From Escherichia coli (lineage in GTDB: Bacteria > Pseudomonadota > Gammaproteobacteria > Enterobacterales > Enterobacteriaceae), in the NCBI RefSeq assembly GCF_013122565.1, contig NZ_CP053258.1: DNA of 64,000 nucleotides; one strand, written 5' to 3'. This document shows positions 714 to 24,242 of the stretch, piece after piece. Position 1 is the first letter of the stretch. Each line of letters begins with the position of its first letter. The position numbers were made by a program, and so were the translations under genes. Below the pieces are notes generated by a model. The model did not search any database. It saw nothing but the letters and a program-made list of their open reading frames with translations, and was not told the DNA's origin.

Positions 714-722
714 GGAAAATGA

Positions 723-1325: not shown

Positions 1326-1328
1326 TAA

Positions 1329-1360: not shown

Positions 1361-2264
1361 ACATCTCCTGCGGTACGACCGATTTCGCCAGCAACCATTC
1401 ACGAAATTGCTGCAAGTGCGGCGAGTCAGACTTCTCTTCCTGCCACGTCATAATAAAACGATTACCGGTACGAATAGGCACATCACAGGGAATCACCATA
1501 TCGCCACTATCCAAATCATGTTGAATAGCGAACCGTGGTAACAGCGCCACGCCGAGATTAGAGCGCACGGCGGCAATCAACATTGAAAGCAAATCGAAAC
1601 GTGGCCCGTTGTTGACCAGCGGACTGCTAACGCCAGATAAAGCAAACCACTCTTCCCAGCCAGTAATACGGGTGCTTTGATGCAGAAGTGGTAACTCAGT
1701 AAGCAGTTCTGCCACTGACAGTTTTTGATCGGACATTGCAAGCAAACTGCCGCTGCATACCGGCAAAATCTCCTCTTCAAAGAGATATTCTACTTCCGCC
1801 CAGGGCGCGCAAAAATTTTCGCGCATAATGACAGCATCGTACTCCCGATTAAGAAAATCGCCGTTATTAGCTAAAGAATGAATATTAACAATAATATCGG
1901 GATGTAACTTTGTGAATTCATGTAAATTTGGGATTAACCAGTGGGTACTAAAAGTAGGATTAACGGCAAGTTCAATAACCTGAACCGTAGGCTGCCAGGT
2001 CATAATGGTATTGGTATCGCGTTCCAGCTTATTTAATGTTTCTTTTACTATCCCCAGGTAATACTTCCCTGCATCATTAAGAAAAATACGTTTTTTAGAG
2101 TGTGAAAATAACGGAGTACGTAAAAATTCCTCCAGCGCACTTACTTGTCTGAATACTGCACTTTGGGTTAACGCTAACTCCTCTGCCGCTCTGGTATAAC
2201 TTTCATGACGTGCGACGACCTCAAAAGTCACCAGCAGTTCCGTTTTAGGTATTTTTCCTCGCAT
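1359..2264 (-). CDS. LysR-family transcriptional regulator
   Basis: N-terminal HTH region (LVTFEVVARHESYTRAAEELALTQSAVFRQVSALEEFL) and LysR-type substrate-binding C-terminus. Start chosen at MRGKIPKTELL (2264) rather than the longer track ORF starting at 2294. Confidence 0.8.
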   Translation of the reverse strand: MRGKIPKTELLVTFEVVARHESYTRAAEELALTQSAVFRQVSALEEFLRTPLFSHSKKRIFLNDAGKYYLGIVKETLNKLERDTNTIMTWQPTVQVIELAVNPTFSTHWLIPNLHEFTKLHPDIIVNIHSLANNGDFLNREYDAVIMRENFCAPWAEVEYLFEEEILPVCSGSLLAMSDQKLSVAELLTELPLLHQSTRITGWEEWFALSGVSSPLVNNGPRFDLLSMLIAAVRSNLGVALLPRFAIQHDLDSGDMVIPCDVPIRTGNRFIMTWQEEKSDSPHLQQFREWLLAKSVVPQEM

Positions 2265-2854
2265 AATGCCTTCCGTGAAAAAATAACAATTCAAAAAATT
2301 ATTTTATAAAAAACAGTAGCGCTAATGAATATCATAATTCAAATAAACAAACCAGTCAGCTATATGTCTAACCAGGAAAATAAAGTGACAATAATCCTAA
2401 AACAGGAATTTCACCTCAGTTATCCGCATGCAATGCTTTAAAGCCATTATTGCAAGAATATTATTCATATACATGAATATACTCTAAATAAGTCGAGTTG
2501 GAGGAAGGGAACAAATAATGAATTTCCAGAAGCTTACATAAGTAAGTGACCTGGGTGAGCGAACATCGATGCAGCACATGCAACTTGAATTATGACAAGT
2601 ATACAATGATAAATTTAGATACCCTATGTTATATATTATCTATGTCCGGTTAAATTGAATGAGTCATGGCCTTCAAAGACATCGCAAAAGATAATTTCTC
2701 TTTAACAATAAGCCAGATTTACCACTTGTAAAAATTGCTATCGCCACATACACTACGCGCGTTTTCTTTCCCTTTTGCTGGCTGCTGACCGGAAAGACAA
2801 AATTACCCTCGCAATACAGGGGGTTGTTTAACGTCTATATTTCAGGACAGCGTT

Positions 2855-4252
2855 ATGCATCATCTTTCAAGGCTTGATAAAGCCTTTCTGCGCAAAGGGA
2901 TCCAACTTTCCCGCGCCAACAATATTGTTTCATTATCTCGTCCATCAGGTGTCAGTGCCCGCGTACTGCTGCCAGACGAACTGCCGCTGGAAGAAAAAGC
3001 AGTAACACAACTGCTTGATTTTGCAGAAGTGAAGCTACCAGACCACCCAGGTTATGTACGCCAGACGTGTGCGACGCCAGATTTTCATCCCGGCAATGGC
3101 GTCCCCGTTGGCGCGGTGGTAGCCTCAACGCCGGATTTAGTCATTCCCGCCGCCATCGGCACCGATATTTCTTGTGGCATGCGGCTGCTGACGACCGGAA
3201 TAACACTTGAGCAAGCCGAAGCGCATAAAGACGTCATCACTCAGCGGTTAACGCAAGTGTTACTGCAAAATGAGCGCGATGTTCCGTTATCTGCACGAGC
3301 GTTCACCGCGCTTTTTGATGGCGGGCCGGCAGATTGCATGTCGGCCTTGCCATCAGCAGGTCTCTGGACACGCACGAATATCCCCCGAATGGTACAAGAG
3401 ATTGACCGCTGCATTGGGCTGAACGAGCATAAAAGTCATTCGCGTTATGCCCCACCCGCCCTGCTGGCAACGGACCGCGCATTACTCCGCGACCCTTGTC
3501 TGGGTACGCCGGGTTCAGGTAATCATTTTATTGAACTTCAGGTAGTTGATAGCGTGATCGATCGCCATGTAGCCTGGCAACAAGGGCTGAAAACAGGCGA
3601 TATCGTGGTGATGATCCATAGTGGATCGCGAGATGTCGGCTTTTACGTCGGACGACGCTGGACGGACCGTGCCCGCGCAGACTGGCCCGCTGGGCATAAA
3701 CATCCACAAAGCGGGTTATATGGTCTGGCTGGTGGACTGGCGGAGGAATATCTACAAGCGATGGGAATGGCGGCGCGTTACGCATGGTTAAATCGCGTGA
3801 CCATTACGGAAATGGTGCGCGTATGTTTTGCCGATTTATTCCATCAGGATGAATCACATCTGGTGGTGGATGTGCCGCATAACATCATCCTTCGCGAGCA
3901 TGAGATGAATATTCATCGCAAAGGCGCAACACCGGCACGTGCGGGCGATCTGGCGTTAATCCCCGGTTCAATGGGCGATTATTCGTGGCTTGCGGTAGGT
4001 TGCGGCAACCCGGAGTGGTTGTGGTCATGCAGTCACGGAGCAGGACGCAGCCAGCGTCGGCAGGCCATGCGCGCACACGCGACTGAAGAGTCAACGCTGC
4101 CGTGGCAATGCGTAACACTGCGTGAAGAACGGCGTATTGAGGAAGCGCCAGCTGCTTATAAAGATATTGGTCCGGTTATCGAAGCCCAACAAGAAGCTGG
4201 ATTAATTCAGCCAGCGGTCAGATTTCGACCGTGGTTAACGTTTAAGGCATAA
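2855..4252 (+). CDS. RtcB-family RNA ligase paralog (orphan)
   Basis: 465 aa with the RtcB signature motifs DISCGMR, GSGNHFIE, HSGSR, HN...HRKGA, IPGSMG and SHGAGR. Stop codon is immediately followed by the sucD 3' terminator palindrome. Confidence 0.8.
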   Translation: MHHLSRLDKAFLRKGIQLSRANNIVSLSRPSGVSARVLLPDELPLEEKAVTQLLDFAEVKLPDHPGYVRQTCATPDFHPGNGVPVGAVVASTPDLVIPAAIGTDISCGMRLLTTGITLEQAEAHKDVITQRLTQVLLQNERDVPLSARAFTALFDGGPADCMSALPSAGLWTRTNIPRMVQEIDRCIGLNEHKSHSRYAPPALLATDRALLRDPCLGTPGSGNHFIELQVVDSVIDRHVAWQQGLKTGDIVVMIHSGSRDVGFYVGRRWTDRARADWPAGHKHPQSGLYGLAGGLAEEYLQAMGMAARYAWLNRVTITEMVRVCFADLFHQDESHLVVDVPHNIILREHEMNIHRKGATPARAGDLALIPGSMGDYSWLAVGCGNPEWLWSCSHGAGRSQRRQAMRAHATEESTLPWQCVTLREERRIEEAPAAYKDIGPVIEAQQEAGLIQPAVRFRPWLTFKA

Positions 4253-4349
4253 AAAAGGCCATCATACGATGGCCAACCATGTCGAAACCGACAGCCCTTC
4301 GCCATTCCTGTAGAGGGAAGCGGCGAGGGCTATTTCTTATTACAGATAT
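4253..4349 (-). ncRNA. sdhX: sucD 3'UTR-derived sRNA (SdhX/RybD-like) with intrinsic terminator
   Basis: Minus-strand region directly after the sucD stop ends in hairpin GGCCATCGTATGATGGCC followed by TTTTTT (4253-4276 on +). Position and terminator match the SdhX sRNA as I recall it; exact 5' end not determinable. Confidence 0.5.
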
Positions 4350-5219
4350 TTATTTCAGAACAGTTTTCAGTGCTTCACCGATATCCGCCAGGCTGCGAAC
4401 GGTTTTCACGCCTGCGGCTTCCAGAGCCGCGAATTTCTCATCCGCAGTCCCTTTCCCACCGGCAATGATGGCACCTGCGTGGCCCATACGTTTGCCTTTC
4501 GGCGCAGTCACACCAGCGATGTAACCTACAACTGGCTTGGTAACGTGCTCTTTGATGTACGCTGCTGCTTCTTCTTCAGCGCTACCGCCGATCTCACCGA
4601 TCATCACGATCGCTTCGGTCTGCGGATCTTTTTCGAACATTTCGAGGATGTCGATAAAGTTAGAGCCAGGGATCGGGTCACCGCCGATACCAACACAGGT
4701 CGACTGACCGAAACCGTAATCCGTGGTCTGTTTAACCGCTTCATAGGTCAGTGTACCGGAACGGGAAACGATACCCACTTTACCCGGTTTGTGAATGTGA
4801 CCAGGCTGGATACCGATTTTGCATTCACCTGGGGTGATAACGCCCGGGCAGTTCGGGCCGATCATACGAACGCCGGCTTCATCCAGTTTCACTTTCACAG
4901 TCAGCATATCCAGCGTCGGGATGCCTTCAGTGATGGTGATAATCAGTTTGATGCCTGCGTCGATGGCTTCCAGAATGGAGTCTTTGCAGAACGGTGCTGG
5001 TACGTAGATAACAGAAGCGGTAGCGCCAGTGGCAGCAACGGCTTCACGCACGGTGTTGAACACCGGCAGGCCGAGGTGGGTGGTGCCGCCTTTACCTGGG
5101 GTTACGCCGCCAACCATTTTAGTGCCGTATGCAATAGCCTGTTCTGAGTGGAAAGTCCCCTGGCTACCGGTAAAACCCTGGCAGATAACCTTGGTGTTTT
5201 TATCAATTAAAATGGACAT
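4350..5219 (-). CDS. sucD: Succinyl-CoA synthetase alpha subunit
   Basis: 289 aa, [27 protein letters not shown]..., CoA-binding and phosphohistidine motifs; start overlaps the sucC stop. Confidence 0.97.
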
Positions 5220-6385
5220 TATTTCCCCTCCACTGCGGCAACAACCTGCTGAGCTGCATCCGTCAGACCTTTTGCTGCAATAATATTCAGGCCGCTGTCA
5301 GCCAGTTTCTTCGCGCCGAGTTCGGCGTTGTTACCTTCCAGACGTACCACGACCGGTACGTTAACACCCACTTCCGCTACCGCGCCGATGATACCGTCAG
5401 CGATCAGGTCGCAACGAACGATACCGCCGAAGATGTTAACCAGAACGGCTTTCACTTTGTCGTCAGAGAGGATGATTTTGAACGCTTCGGTTACACGTTC
5501 TTTGGTTGCGCCGCCGCCAACGTCCAGGAAGTTAGCCGGTTCGCCGCCGTGCAGTTTAACGATGTCCATCGTACCCATCGCCAGACCTGCGCCGTTAACC
5601 ATACAACCGATGTTACCGTCCAGCGCAACGTAGTTCAGTTCCCACTGTGCAGCTTGTGCTTCACGTGGATCTTCCTGCGACTGGTCACGCATTTCGCGCA
5701 GATCAGGCTGGCGGAACAGTGCGTTGCCATCAGCGCCCAGTTTGCCGTCGAGGCAAATCAGATCGCCCTGTTTGGTAATGACCAGCGGGTTGATTTCGAT
5801 CAGCGCCAGGTCACGCTCCAGGAAAATGGTCGCCAGGCCCATGAAGATTTTGGTGAACTGCTGAACCAGTTTACCTTCCAGACCAAGTTTGAACGCCAGC
5901 TCGCGTCCCTGATACGGCATCGGGCCAGTCAGCGGATCAAGCGCAACTTTATGGATCAGGTGCGGAGTTTCTTCCGCCACTTTTTCGATTTCCACGCCGC
6001 CTTCGGTGGAGGCCATAAAGACCACGCGACGTGAACTACGGTCTACAACGGCACCGAGATACAGCTCTTTAGCGATATCGGTCGCCGCTTCAACCAGAAT
6101 CTGGTTAACCGGTTGGCCATTGGCATCTGTTTGATACGTTACCAGACGCTTGCCCAGCCAGTTTTCTGCAAAAGCACGGATGTCTTCTTTGCTGTTTACA
6201 ACTTTCACACCGCCCGCTTTACCGCGGCCACCAGCGTGAACCTGACATTTCACTACCCACGGACCGGCACCGATTTTTGAAGCGGCTTCTTCTGCTTCGC
6301 GCGGAGTAGTACAGGCATAACCCACCGGTGCTGGTAAGCCATAGCGGGCAAAAAGTTGTTTTGCCTGATATTCATGTAAGTTCAT
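5219..6385 (-). CDS. sucC: Succinyl-CoA synthetase beta subunit
   Basis: 388 aa, [18 protein letters not shown]..., ATP-grasp domain. Confidence 0.97.
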
Positions 6386-6469
6386 GTGTTCTGTCCATCC
6401 TTCAGTAATCGTTATCTTTTAAACCGTAGACCGAATATTTCGTATCGCTTCCGGGTATTGTCGGTCACC

Positions 6470-6640
6470 CGTAGGCCTGATAAGACGCGTCAGCGTCGCA
6501 TCAGGCATCGCTTGTCGGATGCGGCGCGAGCGCCTTATCCGACCTACATCGGTGCTTCCCGTAGGCCTGATAAGACGCGTTAAGCGTCGCATCAGGCTTC
6601 AATGGCCGGAGAAGGCGATAATGCCTTATCCGGTCTACAG
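6470..6640. repeat. BIME / cluster of REP palindromes in the sucB-sucC intergenic region
   Basis: Several alternating-orientation REP units (GCCTGATGCGACGCT...CTTATCAGGCCTAC type, and GCCGGATGCGGCG...CTTATCCGACCTAC). Confidence 0.85.
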
Positions 6641-6660
6641 TGCAGGTGAAGCTTAAACTA

Positions 6661-7878
6661 CTACACGTCCAGCAGCAGACGCGTCGGATCTTCCAGCAAC
6701 TCTTTGATCGTTACCAGGAAGCCCACGGATTCGCGACCATCGATCAGACGGTGATCGTAGGACAGCGCCAGGTACATCATCGGCAGGATCTCAACCTGAC
6801 CATTCACCGCCATCGGACGATCTTTGATAGCGTGCATACCCAGAATTGCGCTCTGCGGCGGGTTGATGATCGGCGTAGACATCAGGGAACCGAACACACC
6901 ACCGTTGGTGATAGTGAAGTTACCACCGGTCAGATCTTCAACGGTCAGCTTGCCGTCACGGCCTTTGACTGCCAGCTCTTTGATTTTCTTCTCGATGTCT
7001 GCCATGCCGAGGGTATCGACATCACGCAGTACCGGCGTCACCAGGCCGCGCGGCGTAGAAACCGCCATGCTGACGTCGAAATAGTTGTGGTAAACCACAT
7101 CATCGCCGTCGATAGAAGCATTCACTTCCGGGTAACGTTTCAGGGCTTCAACCACCGCTTTCACGTAGAAGGACATAAAGCCCAGACGGATGCCGTGACG
7201 TTTTTCAAACGCTTCACCGTACTGCTTACGCAGATCCATAATCGGCTTCATGTTGACTTCGTTGAACGTGGTCAGCATGGCGGTGGAGTTTTTCGCTTCC
7301 AGCAGACGCTCTGCCACACGCTTACGCAGGCGAGTCATCGGGACACGTTTTTCGCTACGTGCAGCCAGAGCCGGTTGCGCCGCCGGAGCAGCCGCTGCCG
7401 GAGCAGACTCTTTCGCCGGGGCTTTCGCCAGATGTTTTTCCACATCTTCACGAGTCAGACGACCACCCACACCGGTGCCTTTAATGGCGCTGGCGTCGAG
7501 ATTGTGTTCAGCCAGCAGGCGACGGATCGCCGGGCTTAACGCATCGTTGTTTTGCTCTTCCAGAGACGCCTGCTGGCGTTGCGCCGGAGTGGACGCTTTC
7601 TCTTCAGATTTGGCGCTGGTTTCTTTACCGGCGCTGTTGCCTTCACGCAGGCGACCAAGGATCTGACGAGACGTTACCGTTGTACCTTCATCTTCCAGAA
7701 CCGCATCCAGAATGCCGTCTGCTGATGCCGGTACTTCCAGTACCACTTTGTCAGTTTCGATTTCTACCAGCACTTCATCACGTACGACTGCGTCGCCGGG
7801 TTTTTTATGCCAGGTTGCGACGGTGGCATCGGCTACGGATTCAGGCAGGTCAGGGACCAGAATATCTACGCTACTCAT
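6661..7878 (-). CDS. sucB: 2-oxoglutarate dehydrogenase E2 (dihydrolipoyllysine succinyltransferase)
   Basis: 405 aa, lipoyl domain ([14 protein letters not shown]), Ala/Pro-rich linker, catalytic DHRLIDG motif. Confidence 0.97.
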
Positions 7879-7892
7879 TGTGTATCCTTTAT

Positions 7893-10694
7893 TTATTCGA
7901 CGTTCAGCGCGTCATTAACCAGATCTTGTTGCTGTTTCTGGTGAACGGACATATACCCTACCGCCGGAGAGGCGGAGGCCGGGCGGCCTGCATAACGCAG
8001 AGAAGCCCCAAACGGAATCACTTCACGGAAATGATGCTGGCTGCAGTACCATGCGCCCTGGTTGAGCGGCTCTTCCTGGCACCAGACAAAATCCTTGACG
8101 TGAGCAAACTGCTGCAACACTTCCTGCATCGCTTTATGCGGGAACGGGTAGAGTTGCTCGATACGCACAATGGCGACATCGTGTTGATTGTTCTTACGAC
8201 GCTGTTCCAGCAGGTCGTAATAAACCTTACCAGAACACATCACTACGCGCTTCACGCCCTTCGGATCAAGCTCGTCGATTTCACCGATGGCTGGCAGGAA
8301 GGTGCCGTTCGCCAGTTCTTCGAGGCTGGAAACCGCCAGCGGATGACGCAGCAGGGATTTCGGCGACATCACGACCAGCGGACGACGCATCCCGCGCAGC
8401 GCCTGACGACGCAGCATGTGGTAAACCTGTGCCGGGGTAGACGGTACGCACACCTGCATGTTTTGCTCAGCGCAAAGTTGCAGATAACGTTCCAGACGCG
8501 CGGAGGAGTGCTCCGGCCCCTGCCCTTCGTAACCGTGTGGCAGCAACATCACCAGGCCACACATCCGGCCCCATTTCTGTTCGCCAGAGGAGATGAACTG
8601 GTCGATAACCACCTGAGCACCGTTAGCGAAGTCACCGAACTGCGCTTCCCAGATGGTCAGAGTGCGTGGTTCTGCGGTGGCATAACCGTATTCAAACGCC
8701 AGCACGGCTTCTTCAGACAGTACGGAGTCCCAGACACGGAACGCGCCCTGGCCGTTATGGATGTGTTGCAGCGGCGTGTAAGTGGAACCGTTAGACTGGT
8801 TGTGGATCACCGCGTGGCGGTGGAAGAAGGTACCGCGACCGGAGTCTTCACCCGACAGGCGAACCGGAATGCCTTCGTCAACCAGCGTGGCGTAAGCGAG
8901 GTTTTCCGCGCCGCCCCAGTCGAACAGTTTCTCACCGGCTGCCATCGCCTGGCGATCGCCATAAATCTTGGCAACGCGAGACTGCATTTCAACTGCTTCC
9001 GGCACCGTGCTGATGCGTTTAGCCAGTTCCTGCAGGCGCTTCATCTCAACTTTGTTCGGGTACTCTTCGTCCCATTCGTGGTTGAGGTACGGCGACCAGG
9101 TGAAGGAGTGCATGTTCATCGGACGCCACTCTGCTACCACGCAATCGCCAGCATCCAGCGCATCGCGGTACAGGTTAACCATCTCGGTGGCATCTTCCAG
9201 CGTCGCGACTTTTTCCTGCTCCAGCTTGTCTGCGTAGATTTTGCGCGGCGTTGGATGTTTTTTGATTTTCTGATACATCAGCGGCTGGGTTGCGCTCGGC
9301 TCGTCGGCTTCGTTGTGGCCGTGACGGCGGTAGCACACCAGGTCGATGAAGACATCACGTTTAAAGGTGTTACGGAAATCGAGCGCCAGACGGGTCACAA
9401 AGGCAACGGCTTCCGGATCATCCGCGTTAACGTGGAAAATCGGTGCCTGAACCATCTTACCGATATCAGTACAGTACGGCGTCGAACGTGCATCCAGCGG
9501 ATTAGAGGTGGTGAAGCCAACCTGGTTGTTGATAACGATACGTACCGTACCGCCAACTTCATAACCACGCGCTTTCGACATGTTCAGGGTTTCCTGAACC
9601 ACGCCCTGCCCGGTCACTGCGGCGTCACCGTGGATGGTGATTGGCAGCACTTTGTTGCTGCTCGGCTCATCGAGTCTGTCCAGACGGGCACGAACAGAAC
9701 CGATAACGACCGGGCTGACAATCTCAAGGTGAGACGGGTTAAACGCCAGCGCCAGGTGCACCAGGCCGCCATCGGTCTGGAAGTCAGACGAGAAGCCCAT
9801 GTGGTATTTCACGTCGCCTGTGCCGAGGTGTTCTTTATGTTTACCGGCAAACTCGTCGAACAAGTCTTGCGGTTTTTTACCCAGCACGTTCACCAGCACG
9901 TTCAGACGACCACGGTGCGCCATCCCGAGAACCACTTCGCGGGTGCCGCTGTTGCCCGCGTGGCGGATCATCTCTTTAAGCATCGGGATTAACGCGTCAC
10001 CGCCTTCCAGCGAGAAGCGTTTTGCGCCAGGGAATTTTGCGCCGAGGTAACGTTCAAGGCCTTCAGCGGCGGTCAGTTCGCTTAAGAAGCGTTTTTTCTC
10101 TTCGCTATTGAAAGTCGCGCGACCAGACTCGATACGCTGTTGGATCCAGCGTTTTTCTTCGGTGCTGGTAATGTGCATATACTCGGCGCCAATCGGGCCG
10201 CAGTAGGTTTGCTTCAGGGCTTCCAGCAGTTCACCGAGTTTCATGGTTTCTTTGCCGCTGGCAAATGAACCGACGTTGAAGGTCTCCTGGAAGTCTGCTT
10301 CGGTCAGATCGTGGAAAGACGGATCCAGATCGGCCACTTTATCTTGCTGCCACAGTCCCAGCGGATCGAGATTCGCATGCTGGTGACCACGGAAGCGGTA
10401 TGCGTTAATGAGCTGCAGGACTTTAACCTGCTTCACATTGGTGTCAGGGTCGGAGATCGTTGAAGAGTAACGTGAAGCGTCTTTCGCCAGGCGGCGGAAA
10501 TATTCACGCGTTTGAGAGTGGAATTGATCCGGTTTGACTCCCGTACCAGGTAACTGCTGGAACGTCGAACGCCAGTTAGCGTCAACCGAGTCAGGATCGG
10601 TTAAGAAGTCTTCATAGAGCTGTTCTATCCAGCTCTGGTTTGCGCCAGAGAGGTAAGAAGAGTCCAACCAGGCTTTCAAAGCGCTGTTCTGCAT
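7893..10694 (-). CDS. sucA: 2-oxoglutarate dehydrogenase E1 component
   Basis: 933 aa, [34 protein letters not shown]...; thiamine-diphosphate enzyme. Confidence 0.97.
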
Positions 10695-10873
10695 CGTGAT
10701 CCCTTAAGCATCTTTTTTATGCTTACTTCGCCGTGGATACTACCACGCACAGTGATGTGCGTGCCGGGGTTCACTTGCGAGCTCTTGTCTACGTAGTGGC
10801 TCGCGAAGGAACCTTTAAAAACTGTCTTAGTGTCAGGGGCAGTTTTTAAAGATTTCCTGCATTTCTTTGTTAC

Positions 10874-10992
10874 GCCTGATGCGCTGCGCTTATCAGGCCT
10901 ACGGGTAATGACGTGTAGGCCGGATAAGGCGTTCACGCCGCATCCGGCACTGGTTGCCTGATAAGACGCTTGAGCGTCTTATCAGGCCTACG
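10874..10992. repeat. REP cluster in the sdhB-sucA intergenic region
   Basis: Three REP units including two copies of CTTATCAGGCCTAC (10892-10902 and 10981-10991 contain ATCAGGCCTAC). Confidence 0.85.
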
Positions 10993-10994
10993 GT

Positions 10995-11711
10995 TTACGC
11001 ATTACGTTGCAACAACATCGACTTGATATGACCGATGGCGCGCGTCGGGTTCAGCCCCTTCGGACATACACTGACGCAGTTCATGATGCTGTGACAGCGG
11101 AATACACTGAATGCATCGCTCAAACCGTCGAGGCGGCTGTCAGTCTCGGTATCACGGCTATCGATCAGGAAACGATATGCCGCTAACAAGCCTGCCGGGC
11201 CGATAAACTTATCGGGATTCCACCAGAAAGACGGACAAGAGGTTGAACAACATGCGCAGAGAATACATTCATACAGCCCGTCGAGTTTTTCGCGCTGCTC
11301 TGGCATCTGTAAATGCTCGCGAGCTGGCGGATTTTGTTCATTATTCAACAGGTAAGGCTTAATTTTCTCATATTGCGCATAGAATTGTCCCATGTCTACC
11401 ACCAAATCGCGGATCACCGGTAAACCTGGCAGAGGGCGAATCACAATCTTCTTGCCCGGCTGGTTGAGTGCCGAAATTGGGGTAATACAGGCCAGACCAT
11501 TCTTGCCGTTCATGTTCAGACCGTCGGAACCGCACACACCTTCACGACAGGAGCGACGGAACGACAGGCTGGGATCTTTCTCTTTCAGCTGGATAAGCGC
11601 ATCCAGCAGCATCATGTCACGACCTTCTTCCGCTTCCAGGGTGTAATCCTGCATACGCGGAGCATCATCAACATCCGGGTTATAGCGATAAATTGAAAAC
11701 TCGAGTCTCAT
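10995..11711 (-). CDS. sdhB: Succinate dehydrogenase iron-sulfur subunit
   Basis: 238 aa, Cys clusters for the 2Fe-2S, 4Fe-4S and 3Fe-4S centres. Confidence 0.97.
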   Translation of the reverse strand: MRLEFSIYRYNPDVDDAPRMQDYTLEAEEGRDMMLLDALIQLKEKDPSLSFRRSCREGVCGSDGLNMNGKNGLACITPISALNQPGKKIVIRPLPGLPVIRDLVVDMGQFYAQYEKIKPYLLNNEQNPPAREHLQMPEQREKLDGLYECILCACCSTSCPSFWWNPDKFIGPAGLLAAYRFLIDSRDTETDSRLDGLSDAFSVFRCHSIMNCVSVCPKGLNPTRAIGHIKSMLLQRNA

Positions 11712-13840: not shown

Positions 13841-14223
13841 ACGAGGACTCCTGCGAGAAGTGAAAGCACGACAGTAATAACAAAGGAGATTTTGGCGGAG
13901 CGTTTACCCGCTTCGAATGTTTCTTCCAGATAGCCAAAATCCATCATCATGTGGCGAATACCTACGACGACGTGATACGCCAGAGCGGTAAGGATGCCCC
14001 ACATGATAAATTTGACGAAGAAGCTGCCCATAATCGCGGAAGCTTGCTCGAAACCTTCAGGGGAAGAGAGGCTGGTACCCAGAAGCCACAGCAGGATGCC
14101 CACAGCAACAAAGGTGATCACACCGGAAACGCGATGGAGAATGGACGCTATCGCCGTGATGGGGAACCGGATGGTCTGTAGGTCCAGATTAACAGGTCTT
14201 TGTTTTTTCACATTTCTTATCAT
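13834..14223 (-). CDS. sdhC: Succinate dehydrogenase cytochrome b556 subunit
   Basis: Start trimmed to [34 protein letters not shown] (129 aa). Confidence 0.95.
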
Positions 14224-14238
14224 GAATAACGCCCACAT

Positions 14239-14931
14239 GCTGTTCTTATTATTCCCTGGGGACTACGGGCACAGAGGTTAACTTTCTGTTACCTGGAGAC
14301 GTCGGGATTTCCTTCCTCCGGTCTGCTTGCGGGTCAGACAGCGTCCTTTCTATAACTGCGCGTCATGCAAAACACTGCTTCCAGATGCGAAAACGACACG
14401 TTACAACGCTGGGTGGCTCGGGATTGCAGGGTGTTCCGGAGACCTGGCGGCAGTATAGGCCGTTCACAAAATCATTACAATTAACCTACATATAGTTTGT
14501 CGGGTTTTATCCTGAACAGTGATCCAGGTCACGATAACAACATTTATTTAATTTTTAATCATCTAATTTGACAATCATTCAACAAAGTTGTTACAAACAT
14601 TACCAGGAAAAGCATATAATGCGTAAAAGTTATGAAGTCGGTATTTCACCTAAGATTAACTTATGTAACAGTGTGGAAGTATTGACCAATTCATTCGGGA
14701 CAGTTATTAGTGGTAGACAAGTTTAATAATTCGGATTGCTAAGTACTTGATTCGCCATTTATTCGTCATCAATGGATCCTTTACCTGCAAGCGCCCAGAG
14801 CTCTGTACCCAGGTTTTCCCCTCTTTCACAGAGCGGCGAGCCAAATAACAAACGGGTAAAGCCAGGTTGATGTGCGAAGGCAAATTTAAGTTCCGGCAGT
14901 CTTACGCAATAAGGCGCTAAGGAGACCTTAA
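14239..14931. promoter_or_regulatory. Divergent gltA / sdhCDAB-sucABCD control region
   Basis: 693-bp AT-rich intergenic region between divergent sdhC and gltA. By established knowledge it holds the gltA and sdhC promoters; individual sites are not resolved here. Confidence 0.5.
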
Positions 14932-16215
14932 ATGGCTGATACAAAAGCAAAACTCACCCTCAACGGGGACACAGCTGTTGAACTGGATGTGCTGAAAGGC
15001 ACGCTGGGTCAAGATGTTATTGATATCCGTACTCTCGGTTCAAAAGGTGTGTTCACCTTTGACCCAGGCTTCACTTCAACCGCATCCTGCGAATCTAAAA
15101 TTACTTTTATTGATGGTGATGAAGGTATTTTGCTGCACCGCGGTTTCCCGATCGATCAGCTGGCGACCGATTCTAACTACCTGGAAGTTTGTTACATCCT
15201 GCTGAATGGTGAAAAACCGACTCAGGAACAGTATGACGAATTTAAAACTACGGTGACCCGTCATACCATGATCCACGAGCAGATTACCCGTCTGTTCCAC
15301 GCTTTCCGTCGCGACTCACATCCAATGGCAGTCATGTGTGGTATTACCGGCGCGCTGGCGGCGTTCTATCACGACTCGCTGGATGTTAACAATCCTCGTC
15401 ATCGTGAAATTGCCGCGTTCCGCCTGCTGTCGAAAATGCCGACCATGGCAGCGATGTGTTACAAGTATTCCATTGGTCAGCCATTTGTTTATCCGCGCAA
15501 CGATCTCTCCTACGCCGGTAACTTCCTGAATATGATGTTCTCCACGCCGTGCGAACCGTATGAAGTTAATCCGATTCTGGAACGTGCTATGGACCGTATT
15601 CTGATCCTGCACGCTGACCATGAACAGAACGCCTCTACCTCCACCGTGCGTACTGCTGGCTCTTCGGGTGCGAACCCGTTTGCCTGTATCGCAGCAGGTA
15701 TTGCTTCACTGTGGGGACCTGCGCACGGTGGTGCTAACGAAGCGGCGCTGAAAATGCTGGAAGAAATCAGCTCCGTTAAACACATTCCGGAATTTGTTCG
15801 TCGTGCGAAAGACAAAAATGATTCTTTCCGCCTGATGGGCTTCGGTCACCGCGTGTACAAAAATTACGACCCGCGCGCCACCGTAATGCGTGAAACCTGC
15901 CATGAAGTGCTGAAAGAGCTGGGCACCAAAGATGACCTGCTGGAAGTGGCTATGGAGCTGGAAAACATCGCGCTGAACGACCCGTACTTTATCGAGAAGA
16001 AACTGTACCCGAACGTCGATTTCTACTCTGGTATCATCCTGAAAGCGATGGGTATTCCTTCTTCCATGTTCACCGTCATCTTCGCCATGGCCCGTACCGT
16101 TGGCTGGATCGCTCACTGGAGCGAAATGCACAGTGACGGCATGAAGATCGCCCGTCCGCGCCAGTTGTATACAGGATATGAAAAACGCGACTTTAAAAGC
16201 GATATCAAGCGTTAA
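14932..16215 (+). CDS. gltA: Citrate synthase
   Basis: 427 aa, [78 protein letters not shown]... Confidence 0.97.
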
Positions 16216-16606
16216 TGGTTGATTGCTAAGTTGTAAATATTTTAACCCGCTGTTCATATGGCGGGTTAATTTTTATATGCCTAAATACAAATATTTGTAA
16301 AAATAAAATCCACTATCGGATATCCATATATTTTTAATAAAAATATATCGGTATGAATTATAAACAGTTCAGTGAACTTTAATCACCTATATTCCTGTCA
16401 GTCACATGAATAAATCACCAAACATAGCGCACCCCTATAATTTCCAATGGTTTATTCATTAAACAATTAATTCACGACATCAATTAATTACTTTTACATT
16501 TAATAAAATTAATAATATTTTTAAGAAAAACTAAAAACATTCGACAATCAAATAAGATATTCTTGCACCGATATACCTTTTTTCTTTTCTGTTAAAGGAC
16601 TCTGTT

Positions 16607-17173
16607 ATGTTTAAAGGACAAAAAACATTGGCCGCACTGGCCGTATCTCTGCTGTTCACTGCACCTGTTTATGCAGCTGATGAAGGATCCGGTGAAATTC
16701 ACTTTAAAGGTGAGGTTATTGAAGCGCCTTGTGAAATACATCAGGATGATATTGATAAAGAAGTTGAACTCGGTCAGGTGACCACCAGCCACATTAATCA
16801 AACTCATCACAGCGATGCCGTTGCTGTCGACCTGCGCTTGGTGAATTGCGATTTGGAAAACTCCAACAACGGTTCCGGTGACAAGATTTCTAAAGTTGCA
16901 GTCACCTTTGATAGCTCAGCGAAAACCACCGGCGCAGATCCGATTCTCAACAACACCAGCACGGGTGAAGCCACCGGCGTCGGCGTGCGTTTATTGAATA
17001 AAAATCAAACCAATATCGTTTTAGGCACCGCTGCTCCAGACATCGACCTGGCTCCGACCTCCAGCGAGCAAACGCTGAATTTCTTTGCCTGGATGGAACA
17101 AATTGATCAGGCAACACCAGTAACGCCAGGTGCAGTTACGGCGAATGCAACCTACGTGCTGGATTATAAATAA
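16607..17173 (+). CDS. ybgD: Fimbrial subunit (chaperone-usher fimbriae)
   Basis: 188 aa with signal peptide (MFKGQKTLAALAVSLLFTAPVYA) and fimbrial subunit C-terminal Y-x-L-x-Y-K-like pattern. Confidence 0.85.
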   Translation: MFKGQKTLAALAVSLLFTAPVYAADEGSGEIHFKGEVIEAPCEIHQDDIDKEVELGQVTTSHINQTHHSDAVAVDLRLVNCDLENSNNGSGDKISKVAVTFDSSAKTTGADPILNNTSTGEATGVGVRLLNKNQTNIVLGTAAPDIDLAPTSSEQTLNFFAWMEQIDQATPVTPGAVTANATYVLDYK

Positions 17174-17223
17174 GTATTACTTTGGCGGCGCTATCGCCGC
17201 CTTTCTTCAAATATTTATCAGGT

Positions 17224-19683
17224 ATGGACACCGTGAATATTTATCGACTCTCTTTTGTATCCTGCCTGGTCATGGCGATGCCTTCCGCATTAGCGGTCGA
17301 ATTCAACCTGAATGTCCTCGATAAATCGATGCGCGATCGTATTGATATATCATTATTAAAGGAAAAAGGTGTCATTGCTCCAGGCGAATATTTTGTTAGC
17401 GTTGCGGTAAATAATAACCAAATCAGTAACGGGCAAAAGATTAACTGGCAAAAAAATGACGATAAAACCATTCCGTGCATCAATGATTTACTGGTCGATA
17501 AATTTGGCTTAAAACCTGAAGTCCGTCAGTCGTTACCATTGATAAATCAGTGCATCGATTTTAGCTCCCGACCTGAAATGCTCTTCAATTTTGATCAGGC
17601 CAGTCAGCAACTGAATATCACCATTCCGCAGGCCTGGCTGGCGTGGCACTCAGATAACTGGACCCCACCCTCCACATGGAAAGAAGGTGTCGCCGGTGTC
17701 CTGATGGATTACAACTTGTTTGCTAGCAGCTACCGCCCACAGAATGGCAGCAGCAGCACTAATCTTAACGCCTACGGAACAGCAGGAATCAACACGGGGG
17801 CATGGCGCTTACGCAGTGATTACCAGTTGAATCAGACGGATAGCGATGATGACCATGAACAGTCAGGCGAAATATCACGTACCTATCTTTTTCGCCCGTT
17901 ACCGCAATTAGGTTCAAAATTAACCCTCGGCGAAACGGATTTTAGTTCCAATATTTTCGACGGTTTTTCTTATACCGGTGCGGCACTGGCGAGTGACGAT
18001 CGAATGTTGCCATGGGAACTACGCGGCTACGCTCCACAAATTAGCGGTATTGCACAGACCAATGCCACGGTGACGATCAGTCAATCAGGCCGCGTCATTT
18101 ACCAGAAAAAAGTCACACCAGGTCCGTTTATCATTGATGACCTTAATCAGTCCGTCCAGGGAACGCTGGATGTCAAAGTAACGGAAGAAGATGGTCGGGT
18201 GAACAATTTCCAGGTTTCGGCAGCATCGACGCCCTTCCTGACTCGCCAGGGACAGGTTCGCTATAAACTGGCCGCGGGTCAGCCACGGCCTTCCATGTCA
18301 CATCAAACTGAAAATGAAACCTTTTTTAGCAATGAAGTTTCCTGGGGGATGCTCTCCAACACCTCGCTGTACGGCGGCCTGCTGATTTCGGGTGATGACT
18401 ACCATTCTGCCGCAATGGGTATCGGGCAAAATATGCTGTGGCTTGGCGCGCTGTCGTTTGATGTCACCTGGGCCAGTAGCCATTTTGATACTCAGCAGGA
18501 CGAGCGGGGCTTAAGCTACCGATTTAACTACAGCAAACAAGTGGATACCACCAACAGCACGATTTCACTTGCCGCTTATCGTTTCTCCGATCGTCATTTT
18601 CACAGCTACGCCAACTATCTGGATCACAAATACAACGACAGCGATGCGCAGGACGAAAAACAGACAATCAGCTTATCCGTAGGCCAACCGATTACCCCAC
18701 TAAACCTCAATCTTTACGCCAACCTGTTGCATCAAACCTGGTGGAATGCAGACGCCTCCACGACCGCCAACATCACGGCAGGTTTTAATGTTGATATTGG
18801 TGACTGGAGAGATATCTCGATTTCGACGTCATTCAATACAACCCATTACGAAGATAAAGATCGCGATAACCAGATTTACCTGTCGATTTCGCTCCCCTTC
18901 GGTAACGGTGGCCGGGTTGGCTATGACATGCAAAACAGTAGCCACAGCACCACACACCGCATGTCGTGGAACGATACGCTGGATGAACGTAATAGCTGGG
19001 GCATGTCTGCCGGACTGCAATCCGACCGTCCGGACAGTGGAGCCCAGGTGAGCGGTAACTATCAGCACCTGAGTTCAGCGGGTGAGTGGGATATTTCTGG
19101 TACCTATGCCGCCAATGATTACAGTTCTGTAAGCAGCAGCTGGAGCGGTTCTTTCACCGCAACCCAATATGGTGCAGCGTTTCATCGCCGCAGCTCCACC
19201 AATGAACCACGCCTGATGGTCAGCACCGATGGCGTGGCAGATATTCCGGTTCAGGGCAATCTCGACTACACCAACCATTTTGGCATTGCGGTGGTGCCGT
19301 TGATTTCCAGTTACCAGCCTTCCACCGTGGCGGTGAACATGAATGACTTACCCGACGGCGTAACAGTTGCAGAAAACGTTATCAAAGAAACGTGGATTGA
19401 AGGCGCAATAGGTTACAAATCACTGGCTTCCCGTTCCGGTAAAGACGTTAACGTCATCATTCGCAACGCCAGCGGTCAGTTCCCTCCCCTCGGTGCGGAT
19501 ATCCGCCAGGATGACAGCGGCATTAGCGTGGGGATGGTTGGCGAGGAAGGACACGCCTGGTTAAGCGGAGTCGCTGAAAATCAAAAGTTTACCGTGGTCT
19601 GGGGTGATAGTCAGCGTTGCTCGATCCATCTTCCTGAACATATGGAAGACACCGCAAATCGCCTGATTTTACCTTGTCATTAA
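17224..19683 (+). CDS. ybgQ: Fimbrial outer-membrane usher
   Basis: About 820 aa, usher-family size and composition; start chosen at MDTVNIYRLSFVSCLVMAMPSALA. Confidence 0.85.
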   Translation: MDTVNIYRLSFVSCLVMAMPSALAVEFNLNVLDKSMRDRIDISLLKEKGVIAPGEYFVSVAVNNNQISNGQKINWQKNDDKTIPCINDLLVDKFGLKPEVRQSLPLINQCIDFSSRPEMLFNFDQASQQLNITIPQAWLAWHSDNWTPPSTWKEGVAGVLMDYNLFASSYRPQNGSSSTNLNAYGTAGINTGAWRLRSDYQLNQTDSDDDHEQSGEISRTYLFRPLPQLGSKLTLGETDFSSNIFDGFSYTGAALASDDRMLPWELRGYAPQISGIAQTNATVTISQSGRVIYQKKVTPGPFIIDDLNQSVQGTLDVKVTEEDGRVNNFQVSAASTPFLTRQGQVRYKLAAGQPRPSMSHQTENETFFSNEVSWGMLSNTSLYGGLLISGDDYHSAAMGIGQNMLWLGALSFDVTWASSHFDTQQDERGLSYRFNYSKQVDTTNSTISLAAYRFSDRHFHSYANYLDHKYNDSDAQDEKQTISLSVGQPITPLNLNLYANLLHQTWWNADASTTANITAGFNVDIGDWRDISISTSFNTTHYEDKDRDNQIYLSISLPFGNGGRVGYDMQNSSHSTTHRMSWNDTLDERNSWGMSAGLQSDRPDSGAQVSGNYQHLSSAGEWDISGTYAANDYSSVSSSWSGSFTATQYGAAFHRRSSTNEPRLMVSTDGVADIPVQGNLDYTNHFGIAVVPLISSYQPSTVAVNMNDLPDGVTVAENVIKETWIEGAIGYKSLASRSGKDVNVIIRNASGQFPPLGADIRQDDSGISVGMVGEEGHAWLSGVAENQKFTVVWGDSQRCSIHLPEHMEDTANRLILPCH

Positions 19684-19697
19684 TTAAGGAAATGAAA

Positions 19698-20429
19698 ATG
19701 ACATTTATGAAAGGACTTCCCCTTTTGTTGTTGGTAGCCAGTCTGTGCAGCCACGCAGCACTACAACCCGATCGTACTCGTATTGTGTTTAACGCTAATG
19801 ATAAAGCTACCAGTCTGCGAGTAGATAATCGTAGCGATAAACTCCCCTACCTCGCTTATTCCTGGCTCGAAAATGAAAAAGGGGAGAAAAGCGACGATCT
19901 TCTGGTCGCCCTGCCACCGATACAACGTCTGGAACCGAAAGCAACAACGCAGGTGCGGATAGTCAAGCAAGCCTCGACCGCGAAATTACCGGGCGATCGC
20001 GAAACGCTATTTTTCTACAATATACGTGAAATTCCTCCCGCCCCGGAAAAAAACAGCGACCATGCCGTTCTGCAGGTCGCCATCCAGAGCCGTATCAAGG
20101 TGTTCTGGCGACCGTCTGCGTTACGCAAGAAAGCAGGGGAAAAGGTCGAACTGCAGTTACAGGTCAGCCAGAATGGCAACCAACTTAGCTTAAAAAACCC
20201 GACCGGCTATTATCTGACAATCGCCTACCTGGGACGAAATGAGCAAGGCGTTCTCCCCGGCTTCAAAACCGTGATAGTTGCACCTTTTAGTACGGTCAGC
20301 ACTAATACCGGAAGCTATAGCGGCAGCCAGTTTTATCTCGGTTATATGGATGATTACGGCGCGTTACGCATGACGACGCTCAATTGTAGCGGACAATGCC
20401 GTTTACAAGCCGTGGAGGCGAAGAAATGA
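19698..20429 (+). CDS. ybgP: Fimbrial periplasmic chaperone
   Basis: About 243 aa PapD-like chaperone with signal peptide ([20 protein letters not shown]). Confidence 0.85.
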
Positions 20430-21487
20430 GTGCTGGTAAGGGATTATTGCTCATCTTTTTTCTTCTTTTTCTACCCTTGAAGTCTGCGCTGGCGCTGAAC
20501 TGCTATTTTGGTACTTCCGGCGGGGCGGTAGAAAAATCGGAAGCTATTCAACCATTTGCTGTACCAGGCAATGCCAAACCAGGCGATAAAATCTGGGAGT
20601 CTGACGATATTAAAATTCCCGTTTATTGTGACAACAATACCAACGGCAACTTTGAAAGCGAGCATGTCTACGCCTGGGTAAACCCGTATCCGGGGGTGCA
20701 GGATCCTTATTATCAACTCGGCGTGACATACAATGGTGTCGATTACGATGCCAGCCTGGGGAAAAGCCGTATCGACACTAACCAGTGTATCGACAGTAAA
20801 AACATTGATATTTATACCCCTGAGCAGATCATCGCGATGGGATGGCAGAACAAAATTTGCTCGGGCGATCCCGCTAATATTCATATGTCGCGTACCTTTC
20901 TCGCTCGCATGCGGTTATACGTCAAAATTCGCGAAATGCCACCGCATGATTATCAAAGCACGCTTAGCGATTACATCGTGGTGCAATTTGATGGCGAAGG
21001 CAGTGTTAATGAGGACCCTACCGCTCAAAACCTGAAATATCATATTACCGGTCTGGAAAACATTCGCGTGCTGGACTGCAGCGTCAATTTTGCCATTACG
21101 CCTGCCAACCAGGTGATTGATTTTGGTAAATTTAACTTGCTGGATATTCGGCGACATAACATGACTAAAACGTTCAGTATTAAAACGACCAAGAGCCAAA
21201 ACGATCAATGTACCGACGGATTTAAAGTCAGTTCCTCCTTTTATACCGAAGAAACATTGATTGAAGAAGATAAAGCATTGTTGATTGGTAATGGTCTGAA
21301 GCTACGTTTACTGGATGAAAACGCCTCGCCTTATACATTCAATAAATATGCTGAATACGCCGATTTCACCAGTGACATGTTGATCTACGAAAAAACCTAT
21401 ACAGCTGAACTTTCGTCCATTCCAGGCACCCCCATCGAGGCTGGGCCCTTCGATACAGTGGTGCTTTTTAAGATTAACTATAACTGA
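20426..21487 (+). CDS. ybgO: Fimbrial adhesin-like protein
   Basis: About 353 aa secreted protein with signal peptide; last gene of the ybgDQPO cluster. Confidence 0.8.
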
Positions 21488-21638
21488 TTTACCATCATGC
21501 CCTTTGCAGCCGAAAAGGGCATCTCATTCAGAAAATTGCTGATTTTCCCCTTTTCCTTGATTGCTGTTATTTTTTCCTGGCCCGGCTTTCTTTATGCTGT
21601 ATCGATACACCAAAGAGAAAATAATGAGGGAGCAAAGG

Positions 21639-22685
21639 ATGCCAGTTTTGCAGTGGGGAATGTTATGTGTGTTATCACTTCTCCTTTCTATTGGTTTCCT
21701 CGCGGTACATCTCCCGGCGGCGCTATTACTTGGGCCGATGATCGCCGGGATCATCTTTAGTATGCGCGGAATTACTCTGCAACTTCCCCGCTCCGCTTTT
21801 CTCGCCGCCCAGGCCATTCTTGGCTGCATGATTGCGCAAAACCTCACTGGTTCGATCCTGACCACGCTGGCGGTGAACTGGCCGATTGTGTTAGCTATTT
21901 TACTGGTGACGCTGCTTTCCAGCGCCATTGTTGGGTGGCTACTGGTGCGCTATAGCTCATTACCTGGAAATACCGGTGCCTGGGGTTCTTCTCCTGGCGG
22001 CGCGGCGGCAATGGTCGCTATGGCGCAAGATTACGGCGCAGATATTCGCCTGGTGGCGTTTATGCAATATCTGCGAGTGCTGTTCGTCGCAGGGGCCGCT
22101 GTTCTGGTCACACGCATGATGCTGGGCGATAACGCTGAAGCGGTTAACCAGCAGATCGTCTGGTTTCCGCCAGTGAGCATTAATCTCCTGCTTACGATTT
22201 TGCTCGCGGTCGTTGCCGGTACAGTGGGATGCCTGCTGCGTCTTCCTTCCGGCACGATGCTCATCCCGATGCTGGCGGGCGCAGTGCTCCAGTCTGGTCA
22301 GCTCATCACCATCGAACTACCGGAATGGCTGCTGGCGATGGCGTATATGGCAATTGGCTGGCGAATTGGTCTGGGCTTCGATAAACAAATCTTATTGCGG
22401 GCATTGCGACCGCTGCCGCAAATCTTGATGTCGATTTTTGCTCTGCTGGCTATTTGTGCGGGTATGGCGTGGGGGCTGACCCGGTTTATGCACATTGATT
22501 TTATGACTGCCTACCTCGCCACCAGCCCCGGCGGGCTTGATACCGTGGCGGTCATCGCCGCAGGGAGCAATGCCGATATGGCGCTCATTATGGCGATGCA
22601 AACCCTGCGCCTGTTCAGTATTTTGCTGACAGGGCCTGCCATTGCGCGGTTTATTTCAACCTATGCGCCGAAACGTACGGCTTAG
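21639..22685 (+). CDS. abrB: AbrB-family membrane protein (putative regulator/transporter)
   Basis: Start trimmed to [20 protein letters not shown]; polytopic membrane protein with internal duplication; 348 aa. Confidence 0.85.
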
Positions 22686-23473
22686 TGCTGGCAGCCAGGA
22701 CACCAGTAAAACGGGCGCGATGACAACGTGGTTTTCTCAATGATGTCGCCACAGCGTTCGCACGGTTCGCCATCACGATGAAAAACCTTAAAGCGAAACA
22801 GCGCCCCATGATGCTTATTCTCATCCACCTGCCCCCGCGTAGCGTAAGAAAGTCGAGGAATATCCAGTAACGCGTGTGCGAGTGCATCCAGTTGCGCCGC
22901 CTTGAGATCTTTCGCTTTATGATTCCCAGTCAACCCAACCTGCCAGAGGATCTCCACCCGCAGATAATTGCCAAGCCCAGCGAGAAACGCCTGATCGAGC
23001 AGTAATCCAGCAAACTGACGGTTACGAAAGCGCGGCGACAATAACCGTTCTTTCACCACCTCCGGCGTCAGATTCGGATCCAGCACATCGGGACCAACGC
23101 GTTGTAAAAACGGATGCGTGGTCAGTTGTTCCGGGGTCAACATCTCAATATCCGAGGCGCTATAAAGCAGAATGGTTTTGTCGGCAGTTTGCAGCTTCAC
23201 CCGCAGCACGCGCGTGGTTTGCGGCTCTTCACCGGTATCAACCACCCGCCACACGCCGTACAGCTGGTTATGGCTGTAGAGCGTTAAGCCATCGGAAAAA
23301 TGGGTCAGCAACGCTTTTCCGCGTGTTTCCATATGAGTGACGTGTTGACCGATAAGTTGTGACTGATACGGTTGTAACTGCGGGAAGGCAAACCAGACAT
23401 CAGTTAGTGGTTTGCCTTTAATCGCCACCTCCAGGTTATCCGCTGCGCGGCGGATCTCCGGACCTTCAGGCAT
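22682..23473 (-). CDS. nei: Endonuclease VIII (DNA glycosylase/AP lyase)
   Basis: 263 aa, N-terminal MPEGPEIRR catalytic proline and C-terminal zinc finger ([25 protein letters not shown]). Confidence 0.95.
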
Positions 23474-23507
23474 GGTGATATCCTTTTTTCGTTTTTATTC
23501 AGCGGGA

Positions 23508-24242
23508 TTATGCTGAGACAACAATCCCCTTTTTGGCAAATGCAGAGCGTAATCGGTGGGCAAACGCCAGCGCGTGCTCGCCGTCACCATGCAGGCAGAC
23601 CGTTTGTGCCGTTACTTTCGCCCATTCGCCAGTGATGCTTTTAACTCTGCCGTTTTGCACCATCTCCAGCGTCTGTGCAAGCGCCTGTTCTTCGTCTTCA
23701 ATCAGCGCGCCTGGCTGGCTTCGCGGCACCAGCGAGCCGTCAGCCTTGTAACCGCGATCGGCAAACACTTCCTCGCGCGTTGTCAGGCCATATTGCTTGC
23801 CTGCACGAATCAGCTCGCTTCCCGCCAGCCCGACGAGAATCAATGCCGGATCGCAAGCGTATACCGCTCTGGCGATGGCGTCTGCCAGTTGTGCCTCTTT
23901 CGCCGCCTGGTTGTATAACATGCCGTGCGGTTTAACATGGCGCATAACACCGCCTTGCGCACGGGCAATCGTTGCCAGCGCGCCAATTTGATACAGCGTC
24001 TGGGCGTAAACGGTTTCTGGCGGCAGCTGCATGACGCTGCGCCCAAAATTTTCCCTGTCGGGAAAACTCGGGTGAGCGCCAATCGCAACACCATTTTTTA
24101 TTGCTTCACGCACGCAAGCCTGCATGGTTTGCGCATCGCCTGCATGAAATCCACAGGCAATATTGGCAGAGGAAACCAGCGTTAATAGCTCTGCGTCGCT
24201 GGCATAGCCTTCGCCCAGATCGGCGTTCAGGTCAATTTTCAT
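23508..24242 (-). CDS. pxpA: 5-oxoprolinase subunit A (LamB/YcsF family)
   Basis: 244 aa, [36 protein letters not shown]...; K-12 ybgL. Confidence 0.9.

Follow-up and report, generated by a model that had tools for sequence, protein, structure and literature searches.

The segment at 16216-21487 of the 64-kb Escherichia coli stretch analysed here (hereafter the window) is ybgDQPO, a minimal pi-type (Pap-like) chaperone-usher fimbrial operon that is very probably functional and not a relic. The locus has been described and catalogued before, and our analysis mainly confirms its annotation. Published listings class ybgDQPO as pi (PMC3032704 Table 5, PMC5216030) and file it as a core-associated, cryptic fimbria (PMC3559732). 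As a catalogued core-associated operon it has little weight as a discovery, and interest in it will be low beyond specialists. Its evolutionary pattern, the one aspect of the locus that is mildly new, is that of a selected functional unit, in spite of the label cryptic.

Gene content and integrity

Four genes, in the order pilin, usher, chaperone and adhesin, are flanked by gltA and abrB (Table 1), as in K-12-type and other E. coli genomes. The operon aligns to the K-12 type with 100% coverage and 88.9% nucleotide identity. The first-pass annotation had named the cluster as ybgDQPO next to gltA, given this gene order and called all four open reading frames (ORFs) intact. The gltA-abrB slot shared with K-12-type genomes bears out the identification, and the end coordinate of 21487 is exact. 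The gene order is confirmed by domain, sequence and fold evidence alike. No ORF is interrupted on the + strand, and the protein lengths are as in other E. coli whose ybg proteins are annotated as intact (188/819/243/353 residues here, 188/818/242/353 in the K-12 type).

Shine-Dalgarno sequences were judged good ahead of ybgD, ybgP and ybgO. For ybgQ, the start is placed at the ATG at 17224, following the annotation of the nearest genome, while the mechanically called ORF opens at a TTG at 17182. An in-frame ATG lies further upstream of ybgO, at 20396, and is not the annotated start, which shares the 4 nt ATGA with the end of ybgP.

Table 1. Features of the ybgDQPO region, in coordinates of the window
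Feature	Position	Strand	Description and evidence
gltA	ends 16215		427 aa; Pfam Citrate_synt
gltA-ybgD spacer	16216-16606	+	391 bp, 26.3% G+C; regulatory leader of the operon, presumed H-NS platform
gltA intrinsic terminator	16242-16275	+	12-bp stem, 4-nt loop, T5 tail; terminator scan
Candidate promoter P1	16282-16309	+	TAAATA-16-TAAAAT; aligned to the K-12 ybgD promoter TAAACA-16-TAAAAT
Candidate promoter P2	16493-16521	+	TTTACA-17-TATTTT; sole sigma-70-like match in the spacer, by consensus only
ybgD	16607-17173	+	major pilin, 188 aa; Pfam Fimbrial, FimA/PapA structures, translation, AAGGA Shine-Dalgarno
Post-ybgD hairpin	17184-17201	+	between ybgD and ybgQ; GC-rich, GGCGGCG-CTAT-CGCCGCC followed by TTTCTTC
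ybgQ	17224-19683	+	outer-membrane usher, 819 aa; Pfam PapC_N, Usher, PapC_C; PapC structure
ybgP	19698-20429	+	periplasmic chaperone, 243 aa; Pfam PapD_N, PapD_C; PapD structure
ybgO	20426-21487	+	predicted two-domain tip adhesin, 353 aa
Post-ybgO hairpin	21497-21522	+	9-bp hairpin ATGCCCTTT/AAAGGGCAT without T tail; structure at the 3' end of the operon mRNA
abrB	21639-22685		downstream neighbour of the ybg block

Usher, chaperone and pilin

YbgQ carries the usher domains PapC_N (1.5e-33), Usher (4.4e-187) and PapC_C (3.9e-13). Its residues 25-818 align to PapC 1-805 (7lhg_C, 1e-155), and FimD is matched at ~1e-79 to 1e-81; the scores are 523 bits for PapC versus 270-277 bits for FimD. Among NCBIfam models, StdB and related ushers score best, and none reaches its equivalog cut-off. 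Assembly of YbgQ depends in K-12 on the translocation and assembly module (TAM). YbgP, in turn, matches PapD_N and PapD_C in Pfam (2.8e-34), with PapD as the best structure (1.8e-47). It keeps the residues aligned to PapD Arg8 and Lys112, and the motifs DRTR and IK(V/L)F(W/Y)RP are conserved.

As judged from sequence, the operon belongs to the pi clade, since its usher is nearer to PapC than to FimD and the usher gene precedes the chaperone gene. The placement rests on the PapC/FimD scores, the gene order and the published listings. The pi clade is reportedly defined by the usher phylogeny of Nuccio and Baumler.

The pilin, YbgD, has a Pfam Fimbrial domain (1.5e-30) and matches the solved FimA and PapA structures at 1e-16 to 1e-13. 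It combines a signal peptide of ~23 aa, a FimA-like N-terminal donor strand, one Cys pair and a C-terminus ending in ...VLDYK. The alignment with FimA spans the donor strand GxxHFKGEV(I/V) as well as the C-terminus with its penultimate Tyr.

YbgO as a predicted tip adhesin

YbgO is a predicted two-domain tip adhesin. A signal peptide (residues 1-23) is followed by a receptor-binding domain of 194 residues (24-217) and a pilin domain (218-353). This is the expected build of an N-terminal receptor-binding beta-sandwich, then a pilin domain without a donor strand of its own. Confidence of the AlphaFold models is high, with a predicted local distance difference test (pLDDT) score of 88 for the whole protein and 91.5 for the N-terminal domain. 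With the whole protein as query, the Foldseek neighbours are two-domain tip adhesins, namely LpfD, CupB6, FimH, CsuE, PapG and CfaE; the fold matches also include the tip adhesins Abp1D, MrkD, GafD and UclD.

Two PDB chains named ‘Fimbrial protein’, 9rx0_A and 9rww_A, match YbgO residues 24-222 and 24-217, respectively, at an E-value of 1e-129. Both 9RX0 and 9RWW are ~96% identical to the YbgO domain (window 20495-21091), and 9RWU and 9RWE are more distant relatives. None of these four entries appeared in the Foldseek results, for which the library held entries released up to April 2026.

Alternatively, YbgO could be a minor subunit of large size, with a role in fibre structure or termination and no receptor binding at the tip. 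Such a role would fit the weak Pfam Fimbrial match, confined to residues 218-353 and below the gathering score (23 vs 25.6 bits), the absence of any matching NCBIfam model, and the lack of a reported receptor. Given the two-domain build and the fold neighbours described above, we consider it very unlikely, and YbgO is treated as a tip adhesin below. For the K-12 fimbria, adherence to bladder cells is mentioned in PMC6033998, which cites Korea 2010 for it.

Conservation, allele diversity and loss

The ybg operon is under strong purifying selection across divergent alleles. The ratio of non-synonymous to synonymous substitution rates (dN/dS) is 0.03-0.15 in all four ybg genes, over synonymous divergence (dS) from 0.1 to more than 1; in abrB it is 0.03-0.05. 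Because the genes are under such strong purifying selection, ‘cryptic’ is not to be equated with ‘decaying’.

The most conserved part is the receptor-binding domain of YbgO, with 99% protein identity to K-12 at a dS of 0.39. YbgD is the least conserved ybg protein, at 70-80% across the compared E. coli alleles. Protein identities to K-12 amount to 95.5% for YbgQ, 96.0% for YbgO, 87.7% for YbgP and 79.8% for YbgD. Variation is thus focused on pilin and chaperone while the receptor domain of the adhesin is conserved, which points to a constant receptor; a structure of this domain is already in the PDB.

We compared the operon with a population set of 5,426 complete E. coli genomes, of which 4153 carry a full-length ybg copy and ~23% lack ybgD. 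All of the sampled carriers (14/14) are annotated without pseudogene flags. Two further strains, chosen because no more than a small remnant of the operon matched in them, had each lost it through deletion. In the first (L004) the deletion is clean and the last 396 nt of ybgO remain. In the second (L022, E. coli VG888-46E9, 4001-5035) an IS1B stands in place of the operon, with 90 nt of ybgD and 195 nt of ybgO left. This IS1-associated loss is a second route, independent of the clean deletion. In this small sample, the four genes were either all intact or lost together as a block. The sizes of clusters with truncated YbgO were not used for a pseudogene frequency, since fragments at contig ends are indistinguishable from true truncations.

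These data also bear on the possibility that the operon is a functionless remnant on its way to pseudogenes, with its intactness in the window due to chance. PMC3559732 calls the operon ‘cryptic’ and ‘not intact in many strains’, S. flexneri 2457T carries ybgO as a pseudogene, and both the share of genomes lacking ybgD and the two deletions would agree with decay. Nevertheless, the dN/dS values of all four genes are like those of abrB, the receptor-binding domain is nearly unchanged at considerable synonymous divergence, the sampled carriers are annotated as intact, and even the non-coding hairpins described below are conserved. A remnant is thus highly improbable, and a functional operon is the reading that we follow.

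The ybg block stands out as an island of divergent sequence, sharply bounded by the stop of gltA on one side and the start of abrB on the other. Among its most divergent alleles, dS exceeds 1 and reaches 1.3-1.9, compared with 0.05-0.08 in gltA. The K-12 and O157 ybgD types both differ from the type in the window by a dS above 1. As a separate observation, abrB has a dS of 0.14-0.21 versus five other strains, 2-3 times that of gltA, and elevated diversity thus reaches past the ybg block on the abrB side.

Operon identity to the window is at least 95% in 12 genomes, 90-95% in 2911, 80-90% in 1427 (among them the K-12 type), and 60-80% in 412 (the O157 and O145 types, at 77-78%). For ybgD alone the distribution is bimodal, with 2826 genomes at 90-99% identity and 1338 at 60-80%, a band which includes the K-12 type. 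The ybgD of the window belongs to the commoner class.

The strain itself is ~2% diverged from the nearest complete genome (97.9-98.2% identity over 1-11700 and 28000-52000). Its lineage is therefore absent from the complete RefSeq genomes and may be a divergent Escherichia clade. We had considered the window allele as rare, with only 12 genomes at 95% or more. This was withdrawn, as the best operon match (98.4%) is about as close as the flanking DNA and the ybgD class is that of the majority.

Along the operon, identity to K-12 ranges from 64 to 98%, with 64-84% in ybgD, 78-85% in ybgP and near-identical stretches in between. As divergent and near-identical stretches alternate in this way, the window allele is a mosaic. 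Other strains give a similar picture. For example, PEC389 combines a K-12 YbgP with the YbgD variant WP_000472430.1, which is also found in MDK9L1, a strain whose allele is 93.1% identical to that of the window over the operon. Judging by these patterns, ybg alleles recombine between strains within the operon.

The allele classes may reach beyond the species. E. marmotae has a ybg operon at the same gltA-abrB site, and the YbgD encoded there shares 94.7% identity with the window protein. It is conceivable, and we put it forward as a tentative explanation only, that the gltA-abrB slot maintains old fimbrial allele classes as a balanced polymorphism crossing species, with purifying selection on the receptor domain. 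If so, the Ybg fimbria, ‘cryptic’ in the laboratory, would be produced in the host and visible to its immune system, and its receptor would be conserved.

The AT-rich leader and its likely silencing

The spacer upstream of ybgD had been described in the first-pass annotation as a strongly AT-rich, probably silenced region of 390 bp. Its AT-richness holds, and its length is corrected to 391 bp. At 26.3% G+C it is the lowest of the window (mean 51.9%). Only 0.1% of all 391-bp windows reach so low a value, and the minimum, 25.6%, starts at 16234, within the spacer. The only other stretch of the window with a 391-bp G+C under 33% is at 2221-2724.

In six alleles the spacer keeps a length of 386-391 bp and 26-33% G+C, while sequence identity drops to ~45%; relative to the window it is ~75% identical in the K-12 type and ~45% in the O157 type. 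Operon leaders of relatives in E. marmotae, Salmonella and Enterobacter have 29-31% G+C, even at another chromosomal site. Since AT-rich leaders are kept across alleles and genera, AT-richness goes with the operon family as a whole, in keeping with control by H-NS. For the K-12 allele such control has been documented. Its gltA-ybgD spacer is listed among the 78 ‘promoter islands’, regions dense in promoter-like sites but transcriptionally suppressed, and is H-NS-bound in all chromatin immunoprecipitation (ChIP) data sets (PMC3661553 Table 1). In addition, cryptic chaperone-usher fimbriae are described as generally H-NS repressed in PMC3559732, citing Korea 2010. By analogy with the K-12 allele, the window allele is probably silenced by H-NS as well.

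Near its 5' end, the spacer contains the strong gltA terminator, with an RNA fold of -16.5 kcal/mol (z -4.4) that none of 200 shuffles equalled. Its stem core is kept in all alleles. Two candidate promoters follow. P1 is the counterpart of the K-12 ybgD promoter, which a genomic SELEX (systematic evolution of ligands by exponential enrichment) list assigns as a ‘constitutive’ RpoD promoter and marks HNS (PMC3946193). P2 sits 86 nt 5' of the ybgD ATG and overlaps an AATATT-TTA block kept in all six alleles. A Rfam scan of 14000-23000, with E-values up to 1, gave no match, so that no known small RNA or riboswitch was found in the leader.

An ordinary promoter and leader, run by BolA or other specific activators, or by conditions like temperature and signals from the host, and not silenced by H-NS, is the first alternative to be weighed here. 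The ‘constitutive’ label of the SELEX list and the lack of enrichment of the H-NS consensus (see below) would agree with it. In K-12, ybgD is induced by BolA overexpression, and ybg genes are transcribed in Shiga toxin-producing E. coli (STEC) and Shigella. On the other hand, the K-12 spacer is bound by H-NS in every ChIP study and transcriptionally suppressed, and 391 bp at 26% G+C are the type of DNA preferred by H-NS. Besides, the two views are compatible, as anti-silencing by an activator is the usual route to switch on such operons. An unsilenced leader is therefore unlikely.

A second alternative is phase-variable expression, in which the spacer would hold either an invertible promoter of the fim type or a Dam-Lrp methylation switch like those of pap and std. 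The pi-type relative pap uses a Dam-dependent switch, std is likewise Dam-switched, and several AT-rich inverted repeats are present in the spacer. These repeats are low-complexity A/T runs, however, with 71-92% complementarity and no counterpart in other alleles. Moreover, there is not a single GATC throughout 16216-16606, and no recombinase or papI/papB-like regulator gene between sdhC and dtpD. We rejected a pap- or fim-type switch on these grounds, no credible invertible element having been found, and give phase variation next to no probability. Silencing by H-NS thus remains the preferred reading of the leader.

Hairpins after pilin and adhesin

The hairpin between ybgD and ybgQ folds at -19 kcal/mol (z -2.8). 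Among six alleles, including the O157 type, its stem is invariant and its loop variable, and the codons on either side differ by as much as 30%. At the same post-pilin place, hairpins of different sequence are present in the operons of E. marmotae, Salmonella and Enterobacter. This element is presumed to be a partial terminator or an mRNA stabiliser that gives an excess of pilin. The proposed attenuation or 3'-end protection has a parallel in papA. The hairpin after ybgO folds at -13.2 kcal/mol (z -2.8) and was found in all alleles, the deletion strain included. Because AT-rich leader and post-pilin hairpin travel with the operon family across genera, they are good targets for studies of silencing and of subunit ratios.

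Proposed assembly and regulation

By its sequence, YbgD is a pilin that is exported by Sec and carries an N-terminal donor strand. Following the established chaperone-usher mechanism, YbgP would capture the subunits in the periplasm, a YbgO-YbgP complex would prime the YbgQ pore, and YbgD subunits would then join by donor-strand exchange to build a rod that has YbgO at its tip. Concerning expression, the gltA terminator may shield the operon from gltA transcription, and transcription would start inside the 391-bp, 26% G+C leader. By K-12 precedent, the leader is probably covered by H-NS, so that the operon stays silent in the laboratory. Once transcribed, the post-ybgD hairpin could provide more pilin than assembly proteins, either via partial termination or through protection of the transcript 3' end, and the ATGA overlap may couple translation of ybgO to that of ybgP.

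Several findings argue against parts of this model. H-NS occupancy is documented for the K-12 spacer only, to which the window spacer is just ~75% identical. The high-affinity H-NS consensus (TCGATAAATT, up to 2 mismatches) occurs at 3 sites versus 1.5 expected, and 186 of 1000 composition-matched shuffles reach 3; the TCGATAAATT motif count was hence left out of the evidence for silencing. A sigma-70 consensus scan of 16100-21800 gave 3 promoter-like sites versus 9.1 in shuffled sequence, and the promoter positions are guesses. The post-ybgD hairpin has a weak T tail, which makes terminator activity uncertain. Finally, a literature search for a YbgO ligand or for PDB entries 9RX0, 9RWW, 9RWU and 9RWE returned no relevant paper.

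Other observations in the window

A 600-bp patch at 23150-23750, covering the 5' part of nei and the 3' part of pxpA on the - strand, is at most 89.7% identical to all 5,424 complete E. coli genomes, and the neighbouring DNA is at 94-98%. The patch resembles a short import whose source lies beyond the E. coli diversity sampled. On the mngB/mngA-sucDCBA side (1-11700), the best-matching genomes cover the stretch in two pieces spanning ~17.3 kb. Those genomes therefore carry ~5.6 kb that is missing from the window, within which an ‘RtcB family protein’ is annotated. The same stretch includes a short repeat occurring ~36 times per genome. Upstream of gltA, at ~14619-14726 (+), a 35-codon ORF corresponds to the hypothetical protein WP_001305582.1 in all compared genomes; its E. 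marmotae counterpart matches Pfam PF23495 (YbgU).

Comparison with known systems

The closest system is ybgDQPO of K-12, which shares with the window the slot, the four genes, their order and approximate lengths, an AT-rich leader of ~390 bp and the hairpins. It belongs, however, to another allele class, with a leader ~75% and an operon 88.9% identical.

Yqi of E. coli has the same four-gene layout, AT-rich leader and post-pilin hairpin, as do the zupT-ribB operons of Salmonella and Enterobacter, but it lies at another chromosomal site (zupT-ribB) and its proteins are just 38-44% identical to those of the window. We take the E. coli zupT-ribB operon to be ygiL-yqiGHI, ‘ExPEC adhesin I’ (ExPEC, extraintestinal pathogenic E. 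coli), its position having been checked by gene neighbours only. Four-gene ybg homologues were located at the zupT-ribB position in L007 (3165-8062), L008 (3179-8074) and L012 (2078-7050). Outside Escherichia, the nearest relatives of ybg are operons at this position, with 54-65% protein identity to Ybg in Salmonella and 43-62% in Enterobacter. They are closer to Ybg than the E. coli Yqi is, and closer to Ybg than to the E. coli Yqi, a pattern which hints that ybg and yqi-position operons may have been exchanged or duplicated between the two sites.

Std of Salmonella (stdABCD) provides the top NCBIfam usher model for YbgQ, StdB, and, with StdC, one of the best chaperone models. The StdB score of 645 bits, though, is far under the equivalog cut-off of 1289, and ybg is therefore not a Std orthologue. 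The std genes are ordered pilin-usher-chaperone and are under Dam/HdfR control, for which the ybg leader, with zero GATC sites, shows no visible counterpart.

P (Pap) pili, the type member of pi, have the usher gene before the chaperone gene, as in ybg. YbgQ is much nearer to PapC than to FimD, YbgP is best matched by PapD, and both systems have a two-domain tip adhesin, which in YbgO is a predicted one.

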